A stretch of DNA of 64,000 nt from Chloroflexota bacterium (GTDB lineage: Bacteria; Chloroflexota; Dehalococcoidia; Lucifugimonadales; UBA3495): positions 12,746 to 76,745 of the forward strand of contig JAQBVF010000019.1 of assembly GCA_027623675.1 (NCBI GenBank). Direction: 5' to 3'. Shown here piece by piece: positions 548 to 60,914 of this stretch (positions are counted from its first letter, which is position 1; every line of letters begins with the position of its first letter). The notes beneath the pieces were generated by a model. It saw nothing but the letters and a program-made list of their open reading frames with translations. It ran no database searches and was not told the DNA's origin. The position numbers and the translations under genes are program-made.

Positions 548-1823
548 ATGAGGTTCCTAAGACACTCCCGGTTCACGCCCGACTGGCTATTCACCTACAC
601 GGCGGTGATGCTGGTGATGGGGGTTGCCGTTAACTGGGGCGCCGGATTCACCCAATTCGCCCACAGTCTGACTTTGCCCTCCATGGAGGTCGATCTCAGC
701 CTCTCCCACACCAAGGCCGGTTTCGTGGTGACTCTAACCGCCATGGTCCGCATGACCAGCACCATCATCTCCGGCACCCTGGCGCCCCGCTACGGCAGCC
801 GGTTCATCATCGGCGTTGGAACGGCAGGGGCGGGCGGCGCCATGATCCTTTTGGCCTCTGCCCAGTCCTATCCGCTGGCCCTGCTGTCGGCGGCTCTGAT
901 GGGCGTGGGCACTGGAATGGCCCTCACTCCCATGATGGGGCTGCTCACGGGTTGGTTCCAGGCCAGCGACCGGGGTCTGGCCGCGGGCCTGGCGGCCACG
1001 GGAGGCAGCTTCGCCTTCATCTTCGCCGGGGTGATCGTGCCGTGGCTGGTCGGCCGGGACGCTGACGACGGTTGGCGCAACGCCTGGGCGGTCTTTGGCG
1101 CGCTTAGCATCGCAATCGGGCTGGTCTCCCTGCTATTTCTGCGGGAGCGGCCCAGCGCACAGGCGGCAGGGGCGCCGGAGCCCAACGCGCCGGAACCCCA
1201 AAGTCAAAGACAGGGCGCTTGGCCCATCGCCGCCTACAAGAACCCCATGATCTGGCTGATAACCTTTCTGGCCTTCAACTCCGGCTGGTCGCAGAACATC
1301 TTCACTTCGTTCTTCGGCGTCTATCTGAACCAGGAGCATGGCATCAAGCCTGACCACCGCCGGCCAACTGGTCATCTTGATCGGCGTCTTAAGCGTAACC
1401 AGCGGGGTATTCTGGGGGCGGCTGTCGGACCGGGTCAGCCGGGGACAGGGTTTCTTCTACTCTTTCTTGTTGCAGGGCGTGGCATTCGTGCTGATGGCGG
1501 CGTTTCCGGGGATGGTGAGCTTCGTGGTCGCCGCCGTTCTGCTGGGATTCACCCTGCGGGCCGCCTACACCATCTGTGCCGCCAGCGCCGGGGATTATGT
1601 GGCCGTTCAGTTCTCGGCCGCCGCCTTCGGGCTGATGTCGGTGGGAGCGGGCCTGGGCAGCGCCGTCTCGCCGACCGTGGGCGGGATGATTGCCGATAAT
1701 CTCAGCATGAACTGGACCTTCGCCCTGGCCTCTTTAAGTTCGATAACTGGCATGGCCGGCGCGGTGGTCTTGGACAAACAGCCGAGGGTGCCGCGGGAGT
1801 CCGCGCCGACCACTGCCCATTGA
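548..1823 (+). pseudogene. MFS transporter split by a +1 frameshift near 1346-1348 (or sequencing error)
   Basis: N-terminal TM helices in ORF 548; MFS sequence continues in the 1338 frame (SLTTAGQL...WGRLSDRVSR) after ..QEHGI; one extra base in ATCAAGCCTG. Confidence 0.8.
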
Positions 1824-1877
1824 CCCGACACTGGAGTCGGTGCCGGTGATGGTGACCGGAGACCGAGACCGGCAAGC

Positions 1878-2693
1878 TTAGACCTTGGGCCGCCAGGAGA
1901 CCACCCGAGGCTCGAGCGGCACCGCGCCTTTGATCGTGAAACCCTGGTCTCCCTCGACCAAGATATCGGGCAGCAAACCCTGGAGACGCTCCATCTCGGG
2001 AGTATCAGGGGTTAGATAGAGACGGCGGGCCAGTTGCTGTCGGGCCGCATCCAGGCTCTTGAAGCCGCGGCCCCGCGTTACGTGCACCACCTCCACGTCC
2101 GGCTCGACGCCCAATTGGCCCAGCACCTCCAGAAACTCAGGCAGGCTGGGCAGAGGCAGGCGCGGCACGCCGTGGACCATCTCCCAGATGGGATAGACCT
2201 GCGACTGGGGTGGCGCTTGGTACAAGACGACCATCACCCTCCCGGCGTGTTCCTCAAGCTTCCGGACGAAAGCCTCGATCTCCTGGACGGTGTAGAGGAC
2301 GTTGCAGCACAGGGCGGCGTCGGCTTTGGGCACCTGGGCATCCAGCCATTCCGCCTCCACCACCTCGACGTTGTCGACCTCAGATTCGTCGGCGACCTCC
2401 CGAAGCACCTGGCACATGGCAGGCGACGGCTCGACCGCGATGACCTTCTTGGCCTCAAGCGCCATGGGCAACGCGAACCGGCCGCCGCCCGCCCCGACGT
2501 CCAGAACAATCATCTGGGGAGTGATCTGCTCTCTTAGAAAGTTGACCAGCGGGTCATCGGTGCGCCGGGGGTCGGCCCGGAATTGCGCCGCAAAGTTCGC
2601 CCACGAGTCGGCGGGCGGATCACCCTTGCGCACGCTCTCCGATTGGGCATGCTCCAGTTTGATCATCTCGGTCCAGCGTTCGGTTGCGCTCAT
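1878..2693 (-). CDS. class I SAM-dependent methyltransferase
   Basis: VLDVGAGGGR motif I and VIAVEPSPAM; ATG at 2693 with GGA upstream. Confidence 0.85.
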   Translation of the reverse strand: MSATERWTEMIKLEHAQSESVRKGDPPADSWANFAAQFRADPRRTDDPLVNFLREQITPQMIVLDVGAGGGRFALPMALEAKKVIAVEPSPAMCQVLREVADESEVDNVEVVEAEWLDAQVPKADAALCCNVLYTVQEIEAFVRKLEEHAGRVMVVLYQAPPQSQVYPIWEMVHGVPRLPLPSLPEFLEVLGQLGVEPDVEVVHVTRGRGFKSLDAARQQLARRLYLTPDTPEMERLQGLLPDILVEGDQGFTIKGAVPLEPRVVSWRPKV

Positions 2694-33696: not shown

Positions 33697-34578
33697 ATGA
33701 CTGCAGAAGCCATCTCCGCCCACGACCCCTATTCCCGGCAGCGTGTTGCCGCCGGCGGCGTCGAGATGGCCTACGTGGACGTGGGAGACGGCAGCCCGGT
33801 GGTGTTCCTACACGGCAACCCCACGTCGTCCTACCTGTGGCGCAACATCATCCCCCAACTTGAGTCCGTGGGCCGCTGCCTGGCCCCGGACCTCGCAGGC
33901 ATGGGCGAGTCGGGAAGCACACCCAACGGCGCCTACCGGTTCACCGACCACAGCTCATGCCTCGATCAATGGTTCGAGGCGATGGGCCTGACCAGCGATG
34001 TTACCTTGGTGCTGCACGACTGGGGTTCGGCCCTGGGGTTCCACTGGGCCAAGCGCCATCAACAGCGGGTGAAGGGCCTGGTTTACATGGAGGCCATCGT
34101 CCGGCCGGTGACCTGGGAGGAATGGCCGGACGCCGCCCGTCAGGTGTTCCAGGGATTCCGCTCTCCTGCAGGCGAGGAAATGGCGCTGGAGAAGAATGTC
34201 TTCGTGGAACGGGTCTTGCCGGGCAGCGTGCTCCGGGGCCTGACCGAGGCCGAGATGGAGGTCTACCGCCGTCCCTATCTCCAACCGGGGGAGTCGCGGA
34301 GACCCACCCTGACCTGGCCCAGGGAGATTCCCATCGAGGGCCAACCGGCCGACGTTACCCAGGTCGTGGCCGAGTACGCCGAGTGGCTGGCCGGCAGCCA
34401 GGTGCCCAAGCTGTTCGTCAACGCCGAGCCGGGAGCCATATTGACCGGACCGCAGCGGGAGTTCTGCCGCTCGTGGCCCAACCAGAGAGAGGTCACGGTC
34501 AAAGGGAGCCATTTCATACAGGAAGACTCACCGGTGGAGATCGGCCAAGCCATTGCCCAGTGGTATGGGACGCTCTAG
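33697..34578 (+). CDS. dhaA: haloalkane dehalogenase
   Basis: [17 protein letters not shown], nucleophile [32 protein letters not shown]. Confidence 0.92.
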
Positions 34579-34839
34579 TGGCCGGCCGTAAGGGAGTCCG
34601 TTATGGCAGAATTGCAAAGCCTTGGCCCGCCCCTCGTCCAGAATCTGTCGAAGGAACTGGCCCAGGAGAGCTTGGTCCGTCGACGTCTGCCACGAACGGG
34701 TGGCAAGTCCAGGCCCTTAACCATTCAACCGATCACCCAGAGCTTGTCAAAAAGCCTGTTCAAGCCGGTCTGATGGCCTGGACGCGAAACAACCTTGGCT
34801 TACCTATAGCGGTGGTTCGACGGGCTTGTATTATAGCGG

Positions 34840-34985
34840 CGAGAGAGGGGCGTAGAGACCGGCGACGGGCAAGGGCGAAAGAGCCCGGTGTTGAGATAGG
34901 GTCCCCCCTCCGTACCTGCAGAGTGCGAACAGCATCCTGGGCCAAAGAGCCCGCATCAGCAAGGTTGCAGCGCAGGCAACGGAAG
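34840..34985 (+). ncRNA. putative IS110 bridge RNA (ends approximate)
   Basis: Two stem-closed internal loops; guides CGACGGGC (34863-34870) and TGTTGAG (34889-34895) match the target; ACAGCATC (34929-34936) and GCAAG (34959-34963) match the donor junction. Confidence 0.85.
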
Positions 34986-35014
34986 GACCGCCCCAGGGAT
35001 AGTGAGGAGGAGTG

Positions 35015-36004
35015 ATGCACCAATACATCGGAGTGGACGTGGCCTCTGGGACTCTGGAAGTGGCGGCGGCCCGTCAGAAAAAGACCAAGCGGTTCCCCAA
35101 CACCCCAGGGGGTATCAGCGATCTTAGACTTTGGCTAGACCGGTTCGGCAGCTTGACTGGCCTGCACCTGGTGGTGGAGCCCACCAGCACCTACCACCAT
35201 CACTTGGTGGAATCCATGGCCCAGTGGGGTGTCCCTTACACCCTGATTAACCCAGCCAATACGGCGGCCTTCGCCAGGGTCCAGGGGCTGAGGGCCAAGA
35301 CCGACCCGGTGGATGCCCGCCTTCTGGCGGCCTACGGTGAGAGTCAACAACCGGCCCCCAGTCCGCACCCTGAGCAAGACCAAGAAAGCCTCAAGTCATT
35401 GCGCCGGCACCGGGAGTGGTTGGAGAAAGAGCGCCGGGCGGCTGGCAACCGCTTGGAAACGGCGGCGCGCTCCCCATGGACGTCACCTTCTGTGTTGGAG
35501 AGTCTGAAACGGACCATGGAGGGCCTGGATGAGGAACTGGGGCGTATCGCCGCGGAGGAGGAACGCGAGTTGACGGAGAAACCCGGCTGGTCCCAGGAGG
35601 TTAGTTGGCTCGGCACCATCCCTGGCATCGGCAAGAAGACGGCCATGATGATAGTCAGCGAACTGCCGCCGGTGTCCCGGTGTACCCGGTCCAAGTAGTG
35701 GGTGGCGTTTTGCGGGGTGAACCCGGAGCCCAGGGAATCGGGGAAAGCCCAATGGAGCAGGTTGTCGCGGAAGGGGTCGGCCCGCATCCGGGCGGTACTC
35801 TACATGGCGGCGGTGAGTTCGCTCAGGTGCAACCCAGAAACCATGGCGCTGTCGGCCAGGTTGAAGGAGAAGGGCAAGCCTGGCAAGGTGAGGATCTTGG
35901 CGGTGATGAACAAGCTGCTGCGGATCTGCTTTGGGGTGCTAAAGCACCAGCGGCCCTACGACCCTAGCTGGGGCCGGGCTTTGACCCCAGAATCAACTGC
36001 TTGA
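35015..36004 (+). pseudogene. IS110 DEDD recombinase with one in-frame TAG (35696-35698)
   Basis: YIGVDVA, VEPTSTY, AKTDPVDA (DEDD); IPGIGKK; after the TAG, WVAFCGVNP-PRESG and GSARIRAVLYMAA; GAGGAGG RBS. Confidence 0.9.
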
Positions 36005-36090
36005 CATCTATTACAGCATCTCACCACGAGCGGATGAAATGCGTCACAACAACGCCAAGTCAAGATAGACTAGATAGATAAATCCGCCTG

Positions 36091-36158
36091 CGCTCATGGT
36101 GAGCTTGTCGAACCACCGTTGCGCCGCTGAGGTCCTTCGACAGGCTCAGGATGAGCGG
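36091..36158. repeat. inverted pair of REP-like repeats
   Basis: CGCTCATGGTGAGCTTGTCGAACCAC and GTCCTTCGACAGGCTCAGGATGAGCGG. Confidence 0.8.
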
Positions 36159-36230
36159 CGGCGCTGACGCTGAACAACGCCAAGCGTAATCGCTGAAAGC
36201 TAAAGACTGACAGCTCGTAACGGAGAACAC

Positions 36231-37016
36231 ATGCCGGAGACCATGAACATATCCCTGAGGGGCGGCGATATCGAGGCCGTGGTGCTGAAAGACGGCAGCG
36301 GTCCGCCCCTGCTGTACCTCCACGGGGCCGTGGGGCAGAAGGGCTGGGCGCCGTTCTTGGGCGCCCTGGCCAAACAGTTCACGGTCTATGCGCCCTACCT
36401 TCCCGGCTATGGGAAGTCCAACGGCCTGGACAAACTGGACGATGTGACCGACCTGACTCTCCACCATTTCGAGCTTCTGGACGCCCTGGGCGTTGCCAAG
36501 GCCCATGTGGTGGGGCATTTCCTCGGCGGGATGATCGCCGCCGAGATGGCCGCGCTGTCGCCCAGTTATGTCGACCGGCTGGTGCTGGCCGCGCCCGCCG
36601 GCACCTGGCGCGACTCGGAGCCGGTGGCCGACCTTTTGTCCATGACCGCCAACCAACTGCAAGACAACCTATGGTCGTCGGCCTCCAGCTCCATGAGCCT
36701 GTCTCCCGCCGATTTCGAGGCCAACTCCCGCTTGAAGGCTGAGTTGGCCGCCGACCGGATGCAGGACCTGACCGCCGCCGGGAAGTTCCTCTGGCCCATA
36801 CCCGACCGGGGGCTGAAACGGCGGGCCTACCGCATCAAAGCGCCGACGCTGGTGCTGTGGGGCGAGAACGACCGCATCATTCCCCCGGTCTACGCCGAGG
36901 ACTTCACCCGGCTGATCTCCGGCGCCCAGGTGTCGGTCATCCCCAATGCCGGGCATCTGCTGATGATCGAACGGGCCGAGGTATTCGCCGCCTCCGTGGC
37001 GGATTTCCTGAGCTAA
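36231..37016 (+). CDS. alpha/beta hydrolase fold protein lacking the nucleophile (GHFLGG)
   Basis: LYLHGA, PGYG, GHFLGG, PTLVLWGEND, AGH. Confidence 0.85.
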   Translation: MPETMNISLRGGDIEAVVLKDGSGPPLLYLHGAVGQKGWAPFLGALAKQFTVYAPYLPGYGKSNGLDKLDDVTDLTLHHFELLDALGVAKAHVVGHFLGGMIAAEMAALSPSYVDRLVLAAPAGTWRDSEPVADLLSMTANQLQDNLWSSASSSMSLSPADFEANSRLKAELAADRMQDLTAAGKFLWPIPDRGLKRRAYRIKAPTLVLWGENDRIIPPVYAEDFTRLISGAQVSVIPNAGHLLMIERAEVFAASVADFLS

Positions 37017-60450: not shown

Positions 60451-60914
60451 CTAACCCGGGACCGGCATCCCCCGCAGAAACGCGGCTAACCTACAGGCAA
60501 TGGGCCGTAGGGGCATCTTGATTCAATCGGGATGCCCCAACGGCCCAATCCCATCCACCTTGACGCTGCCGGTGGTGGTCTTTAGAATCAGGAACAAGAT
60601 TAGCCGCTGAAATGGCGTTCGTGGGTGAGAGATATGCGCAGGTTCTTGATTCCGTTGGTGTTCGTGGTCCTTTTGACCGTTGCCGCGGTTGTACCTGCGG
60701 CGGCCAATTCGCCGGTGGAAGCCCCGGCACATTCCGCTCCCAGTTGCAGTTCTATCTAGCACCTGCTGGTTCCCGCTAGCATTGCCTGGCCCCGGCAATC
60801 TCCGTGGCTTCCTCTCCGGCAGGCGGCAAAGCTGCCGGAACAACGGCGGATAAACACAGATATCCGGTCCCGGTTCACGCTATGTGGGCGGGGCCTTTTT
60901 TTGGGCGTTGCACA

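Follow-up and report, generated by a model that had tools for sequence, protein, structure and literature searches.

A stop-interrupted IS621-like insertion sequence of the IS110 group with a predicted bridge RNA matching its REP-like target in a Chloroflexota-like genome

Some insertion sequences of the IS110 group choose their targets by means of an RNA that they encode themselves. In a 64-kb stretch of DNA from a Chloroflexota-like host (the whole stretch is called the window below), an element of this group interrupts a repeat of the host genome, and two questions arise from it: was the element led to this site by its own bridge RNA, and is this copy still able to move? The original prediction, drawn from the sequence letters, had described an element bounded by CT dinucleotides whose removal restores a host REP-like repeat, a left end with the two-loop architecture of an IS621-type bridge RNA, guides that match the flanks and the ends of the element, and a TAG codon in the recombinase frame. 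Its coordinates were all correct when checked base by base, and each of these features was found again, the TAG being codon 228. The analysis reported here leads us to conclude that the element is very probably an IS621-like member of the IS110 group which entered a REP-like copy at a CT under the guidance of a bridge RNA, and that the copy has most likely been disabled recently and is non-autonomous. Every defining feature of an IS110-group bridge-RNA element that can be read in a sequence is present, except for an intact reading frame. The features are listed in Table 1.

Table 1. Positions of the features of the element and its target within the 64-kb window
Feature	Position	Strand	Basis or remark
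Left half of interrupted REP-like repeat (left target, LT)	34812..34824	+	Equals intact genomic copies
CT core, left junction	34825..34826	+	Read in sequence
Candidate -10-like hexamer TATTAT	34829..34834	+	Promoter only when right end is joined
Predicted bridge RNA gene (extent of covariance-model match)	34844..34984	+	Model R1
Target-binding loop, closed by 34857-60/34900-03	34857..34903	+	RNAalifold columns 31-35 with 76-80, 95.6% of cells paired
Left target guide, 7 nt + C equal to left flank; ninth base A versus core T	34863..34871	+	Sequence, alignment
Target-loop hairpin GGGC-GAAAGA-GCCC	34873..34886	+	Columns 49-52/59-62, 100% paired, 2 of 4 pairs compensatory
Right target guide, complementary to CT + 6 nt of right flank, 7/8	34888..34895	+	Sequence
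Putative target-loop handshake guide AU	34896..34897	+	Complementary to donor positions 6-7 (AT, 36018-19)
Donor-binding loop, closed by 34915-19/34972-76 and 34924-27/34967-70	34915..34976	+	RNAalifold
Left donor guide	34929..34936	+	Identical to right-end 36013-20
Donor-loop hairpin GGGC-CAAAGA-GCCC	34939..34952	+	Columns 117-121/131-135, 95.6% of cells paired
Right donor guide, 9 nt AU-CA-G-CAAG	34955..34963	+	Can pair discontiguously with CT-TGTAT, one G-T wobble
Putative donor-loop handshake guide GU	34964..34965	+	Poor fit to target positions 6-7 (GG)
IS110 recombinase gene, DEDD RuvC-like and Tnp domains, stop-interrupted	35015..36004	+	Pfam and PDB matches
In-frame TAG, codon 228 from ATG 35015	35696..35698	+	Frame and alignment with relatives
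Candidate -35 hexamer TTGACA, overlapping the stop codon	36001..36006	+	Circle-junction reading
Left donor, last 7 nt of right end	36013..36019	+	Sequence
CT core, right junction	36020..36021	+	Read in sequence
Right half of interrupted REP-like repeat (right target)	36022..36033	+	Repeat comparison

The element spans 34825-36021 and measures 1195 bp when one CT is counted. Its layout is that of the IS110 group, with a long non-coding left end (34827-35014, 188 nt), a short right end of 15 nt, the dinucleotide CT at both, and no long terminal inverted repeats. When the element is taken out, 34812-24, a CT and 36022-33 join to give an intact host repeat, as comparison with other copies in the genome makes clear. 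In the relatives described below, TGTAT is directly preceded by CT in 18 of the 19 that have their left end, L054 being unplaceable. The element is present as a single copy, together with a distant relative, in an assembly of 48 contigs with a completeness of 91%. Fragmented and incomplete assemblies such as this one often lack repeated elements. Contigs of the metagenome runs contain neither a joint that skips the element nor a circle junction, although those of run X3 do not cover 34600-35047 and prove nothing in this respect. Among the sequencing runs listed for this stretch, none is an RNA run. When 400 genomes of the order were searched at the DNA level, one relative with 67% identity came to light, the remaining matches being short, and protein searches with the recombinase found one other genome among 400 of the order (E 1e-60) and none among 400 of the phylum (E 1e-70).

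The interrupted repeat belongs to a genuine family, as had been predicted for the target. A degenerate pattern of this REP-like family occurs 60 times in the genome and twice in a reversed-genome control, and its copies fall into two subclasses, one with GG..CC and one with CC..GG in the stem, and such a joint change is what a hairpin would lead one to expect. Examples are found at 36087-36160 of the window and at position 43487 of contig C16. Of the 15 positions specified by the two target guides, the occupied site agrees at 14, the mismatch being one base of the right guide, and the sole genomic site that agrees at all 15 is the copy on contig C16, which is empty (0.006 such sites expected by chance). 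The summed contig depths over 36056-36167 are about 43-650 in three metagenomes; as these depths run from tens to hundreds, the repeat is widespread in those communities. An inverted pair of REP copies at 36051-36162 also gives a weak match to the Rfam family AaHKsRNA41 (24.8 bits against a gathering score of 97).

The left end by itself gives little sign of a structured RNA. Its single-sequence minimum-free-energy fold is no better than those of shuffled sequences (z -0.03), and a search of 34000-37000 against 4227 Rfam families at E values up to 10 left it without a match, although Rfam 15 may lack a family for bridge RNAs. Both results, along with a genome that is GC-rich and full of REP copies, would suit another reading, namely that the left end is an ordinary 5' untranslated leader and that the matches between its loops and the flanks are coincidental or are mere pieces of the REP-like repeat. 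This reading meets its difficulties when relatives are compared. The comparative set consists of 20 loci from a metagenome scan and a genome search (recombinases 42-61% identical), and their left ends align over the whole non-coding region as a constant scaffold with four variable blocks. RNAalifold, applied to 18 sequences, gives a fold with two large internal loops; a stem closes each loop and a hairpin lies at its center. It has 26 pairs, 11 of which show compensatory changes. The share of paired cells is 94.0% versus 85.7 +/- 0.9% in column shuffles (none of 500 as high), the covariation score is 0.284 versus 0.141 in shuffles, and the pairing falls to 18-44% when the 3' partners are slid by one to three columns. 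Compensatory changes are found in 8 of the 11 pairs of the donor-loop helices (columns 91-97/158-164 and 101-105/152-156). An outer helix (columns 24-28/83-87) is pairable and has no compensatory changes, and it is only a possible part of the RNA. The stems GACC/GGTC and CCTGC/GCAGG and the GGGC-NAAAGA-GCCC hairpin in each loop, on which the proposal of an IS621-type architecture had been founded, are all present. In addition, a covariance model (R1) built from 17 relatives only, with the sequence of the window left out, scores the left end at 87.7 bits (E 5.7e-20), compared with 12.6 bits for the runner-up in the 64-kb window. Thus, the predicted RNA structure is supported by comparison with relatives and not by folding energy.

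The loops of this RNA carry the matches to DNA that a bridge RNA would need. Loop 1 contains CGACGGGC at 34863-70, which is identical to 34818-25, that is, to the left flank and the C of the core, and loop 2 contains ACAGCATC at 34929-36, which repeats 36013-20, the final seven bases of the element followed by C. On the right side of loop 1, TGTTGAG at 34889-95 had been proposed to be complementary to the right flank at six of seven positions, which it is, and extending it by one base (34888-95) gives a reverse complement at seven of eight. The proposed GCAAG at 34959-63 can likewise pair with CT-TGT if one wobble is allowed. When the 185-nt left end was shuffled 200000 times, 2854 of the shuffled sequences contained the target 8-mer, 471 the donor 8-mer and 5 both of them, whereas none contained the two 8-mers along with a seven-of-eight match to the right target.

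The guides were also compared among relatives, for which the original prediction had expected guides and targets to vary together. The insertion sites of the relatives differ widely in sequence, and in each of them the left flank of the element recurs as the 5' block of loop 1. For the left guide, the mean agreement is 6.33 of 7 with the cognate flank versus 3.32 with non-cognate flanks (18 elements); for the right guide it is 4.38 of 6 versus 2.42 (13 elements in which the right flank is present). In neither test did any of 20000 permutations reach the observed guide/flank sum, although these permutation figures overstate the significance because the relatives are not independent of one another. 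The statistics were computed without L046 (a duplicate of L045), L053 (its left end is cut by the end of the contig) and L054 (its left end cannot be aligned), and they count L052 as 0/7 owing to a 1-nt insertion that shifts the column window, whereas by eye it is 7/7. Four distinct target classes are present, each matched by its own guides. The guides therefore change together with the flanking DNA even where the targets are unrelated. On these sequence comparisons, the reading of the left end as a plain leader with chance matches is already contradicted by the covariation of guides and flanks, by the pairing and compensatory changes in the stems and by the match to the independent covariance model, and it disagrees with the absence of the combined matches from the shuffles; we consider it exceedingly improbable. 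None of the 17 relatives compared has the same target guide as the element in the window, which thus has a specificity of its own among them. The left flanks of L045, L048, L051, L056 and L058 contain perfect GC-rich palindromes, hairpin repeats of the respective hosts, and each element is inserted at the 3' foot of the palindrome; repeats of this kind may be where the clade as a whole usually lands.

At the core, the left target guide reads CA, whereas all 17 readable relatives have CT. In IS621, pairing to both core bases is strongly preferred, as stated in the accessible text of PMC11208160, and from that point of view the change might be taken as damage. However, the relatives show free variation (C, T or A) at the second core position of their donor guides, which weakens such an interpretation, and the corresponding donor-guide base of IS621 is described as unpaired in the accessible portion of PMC11208158. 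The weight to be given to the CA is uncertain. The two handshake dinucleotides in Table 1 were assigned after the scheme described in the same portion of PMC11208158, which concerns positions 6-7 of the non-cognate DNA.

A bridge RNA must also be transcribed, and the ends of the element suggest how this may happen. When the right end is joined to the left end, the sequence TTGACA-N17-TATTAT is formed, and no sigma-70-like site was found in the DNA of the linear, integrated form. Among the 15 aligned rows that have a right end, TTGAC at the 17-nt spacing is found in 14, the exception being L056 with TTGATC, and a -10 hexamer that starts with TAT follows in 14 of 15 circle-junction rows, with the left end of L054 unplaceable. 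Judged by its sequence, TTGACA-N17-TATTAT is a putative junction promoter of the kind described for IS110 elements. By analogy, the element belongs with IS621 and would be expected to work as IS621 does. In an excised circle, the TTGACA of the right end and the TATTAT of the left end would form a promoter, and this junction promoter would transcribe from the left end a bridge RNA of roughly 145-160 nt, which the recombinase would presumably bind. [quoted passage not shown] The DEDD/Ser recombinase would then exchange strands at the CT.

The protein that would carry out this reaction is readily recognized. The gene encodes both domains of the family, the N-terminal DEDD RuvC-like domain (PF01548; 4.3e-20, 72.5 bits versus a cut-off of 29) and the C-terminal Tnp domain (PF02371; 9.5e-21, 74.4 bits versus a cut-off of 21.3), and among solved structures it matches ISCro4 (9t56; E 1.4e-43) and IS621 (8wt6; E 1.5e-40). 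Residues D8, E55, D97, D100 and S242 are invariant in an alignment of nine sequences. Many full-length homologues of about 325 amino acids were found, the closest being P0001 and P0002 with 82% and 71% identity, respectively, and one homologue bears a SAR202 name. The nearest relatives come from metagenomes. A scan of the genome contigs for the peptide pattern revealed only relatives with 26-32% identity, and these were left out of the guide test. The catalytic serine, Ser242 in the motif ESGK, is encoded but lies downstream of the in-frame TAG, which precedes it by 14 codons, so that the frame is interrupted. At the position of the TAG, eight of eight aligned full-length relatives have a serine or a threonine.

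As the TAG depends on a single base, it could in principle be an assembly or sequencing error of a metagenome-assembled genome, with the element being intact in the organism. The independent groundwater metagenome X3 contains a related variant that would fit this idea, for a diverged contig of that run (5 differences in 88 nt; the variant is ~94% identical) has C at 35697 and reads TCG, a serine codon. However, the contigs of runs X1 and X2, which are possibly the source of the DNA, have A as the only letter listed at 35697. Furthermore, X3 also contains near-identical fragments from the interior of the element (35080-36023) that include the TAG, such as record 19 with one difference in 417 nt. 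The TAG is not an artefact of the source assembly, and an element that is intact in its host is highly unlikely. The presence of the allele in a near-identical contig from an independent study suggests that the stop may be recent, or that it is tolerated.

Tolerance of the stop deserves some attention, as the element could be functional in spite of it, either by read-through or by producing two polypeptides, a 227-residue piece with the RuvC domain and the coiled coil and a Tnp piece initiated at GTG 35702. The open reading frame from this GTG, which is one codon past the stop, spans the complete Tnp domain with Ser242. The sequence past the stop shows no further decay: identity to P0001 is 181/227 (80%) before it and 85/97 (88%) after it, and the only change at a position that is invariant among the relatives lies before it. 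The recurrence of the allele in a different study points in the same direction, and the accessible text of PMC11208158 describes the active site of IS621 as a composite, formed in trans by RuvC and Tnp domains that belong to different protomers. Nevertheless, no suppressor tRNA with the anticodon CUA is found among the 50 tRNAs that ARAGORN predicts in the whole assembly, no Shine-Dalgarno-like sequence is visible before GTG 35702, the eight aligned relatives are all single polypeptides, the diverged X3 variant has a sense codon, and the X3 contigs with the TAG may stem from the same population as the window. One recent nonsense mutation accounts more simply for all of these observations, and we regard a functional element with this stop as quite improbable. 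By analogy with the composite active site of IS621, one could envisage a natural split bridge recombinase, in which a RuvC/coiled-coil piece and a separately initiated Tnp piece with the catalytic serine would assemble in trans. If true, it would explain both the recurrence of the allele in an independent sample and the undecayed downstream part; even so, it seems distinctly improbable.

We therefore return to a bridge-RNA element that has most likely been disabled recently. The TAG before the catalytic serine, the CA in the left target guide and the mismatch of the right target guide together suggest that this copy is probably not autonomous, and a disabled copy could move only if a recombinase were supplied in trans. 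The mismatch has a parallel in wild-type IS621, which also has one mismatch to its commonest natural target according to the accessible literature on that element. The original prediction of a "fully readable" bridge RNA was overstated, in view of the CA core in the left guide, the right-guide mismatch and the single copy in the assembly. Its further claim of an RNA-guided recombinase orthologue with its own target specificity holds in part: this is an IS110 element with an IS621-type RNA and a target guide unique among the 17 relatives, but the TAG precedes Ser242 in the recombinase. The closest relative from a reference genome (L003/L067; genome G162, contig C61; 58-59% protein identity) has an in-frame TGA in its recombinase. 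As this relative is also stop-interrupted, broken copies seem to be common in the clade.

The likeness to IS621 of E. coli, as far as this element is described in the accessible parts of PMC11208160 (Durrant et al. 2024) and PMC11208158 (Hiraizumi et al. 2024), extends well beyond the two shared Pfam domains and the direct match to the solved recombinase. Both elements have a long left end, a short right end and a CT core; in both RNAs the target loop comes first and the donor loop second, with a central hairpin in each; and the right donor guide shows the discontiguous pairing of nine bases on seven that these two papers describe. The putative handshake dinucleotides, AU and GU, are those of IS621, whose wild-type handshake fit is also imperfect. 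A circle-junction promoter, putative here, and a REP element as target are further features in common. Compared with the IS621 donor oligonucleotide printed in the accessible portion of PMC13396178, the donor 14-mer has one difference in 14 positions, and that oligonucleotide agrees with the IS621 donor to which the original prediction had likened it. In contrast to IS621, a separate 5' stem-loop is not evident here, and the target-loop stem seems to be extended instead (columns 24-28/83-87); the right target guide has 8 nt, compared with 4 in IS621 as described there; the target is another repeat, in a Chloroflexota-like host; and this copy has the nonsense codon and the CA core in its left target guide. 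A blastn search with the left end found no similarity in 5426 E. coli genomes.

Other systems resemble the element in fewer respects. The ISCro4 bridge recombinase (PDB 9t56) is the best match among solved structures, over residues 3-319, and the likeness concerns the protein sequence. ISPpu9 and ISPpu10 of Pseudomonas putida, as described in the accessible parts of PMC12288879 and bioRxiv 10.64898/2026.03.19.712850, are IS110-family elements that lie in REP or conserved intergenic repeats, and they are likened here by description. In the latter source, the hairpin structure of the target is proposed to be recognized alongside its sequence. IS1111-group elements with a seekRNA have a recombinase of the same family and the same RNA-guided logic; in contrast to the left-end RNA found here, however, their guide RNA lies in the right end and they have long subterminal inverted repeats, according to the accessible text of PMC11208160. 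Durrant et al. 2024 (PMC11208160) state in that text that bridge RNAs were predicted in thousands of orthologues, and the clade of our element may already be among the Supplementary Data of that paper. With regard to IS110 bridge RNAs in Chloroflexota, the literature search returned only a preprint in which non-coding RNA is mapped with language models.

The known mechanism, described in 2024, is left unchanged by this element. What it adds is a further natural element with a bridge RNA, in a Chloroflexota-like host, and a clade of roughly 50-60%-identical relatives with very clean covariation of guides and targets. The right target guide of this clade is longer, and its 8 nt bring the specified target positions to 15. 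Bridge-recombinase engineering draws on natural diversity of this kind.

The same genome contains a second element of the IS110 group (L002, ~1360-2480, minus strand), located on contig C23 at about 103230-104400, and its right-end junction recurs on contig C7 near 11125 (minus strand). Its recombinase is 33% identical to that in the window, its left end matches model R1 at 45.1 bits, and its guides match its own flanks by eye. It lies in the other REP-like subclass, where it occupies another CT and is oriented the opposite way. Hence, a single family of hairpin repeats is the target of two distinct IS110 lineages in this genome, which differ in the position and the orientation of their insertion. 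Finally, ARAGORN detected a tRNA-Sec with the anticodon UCA at 60570-60666 of one contig of this genome, and its presence suggests that the host probably makes selenoproteins.
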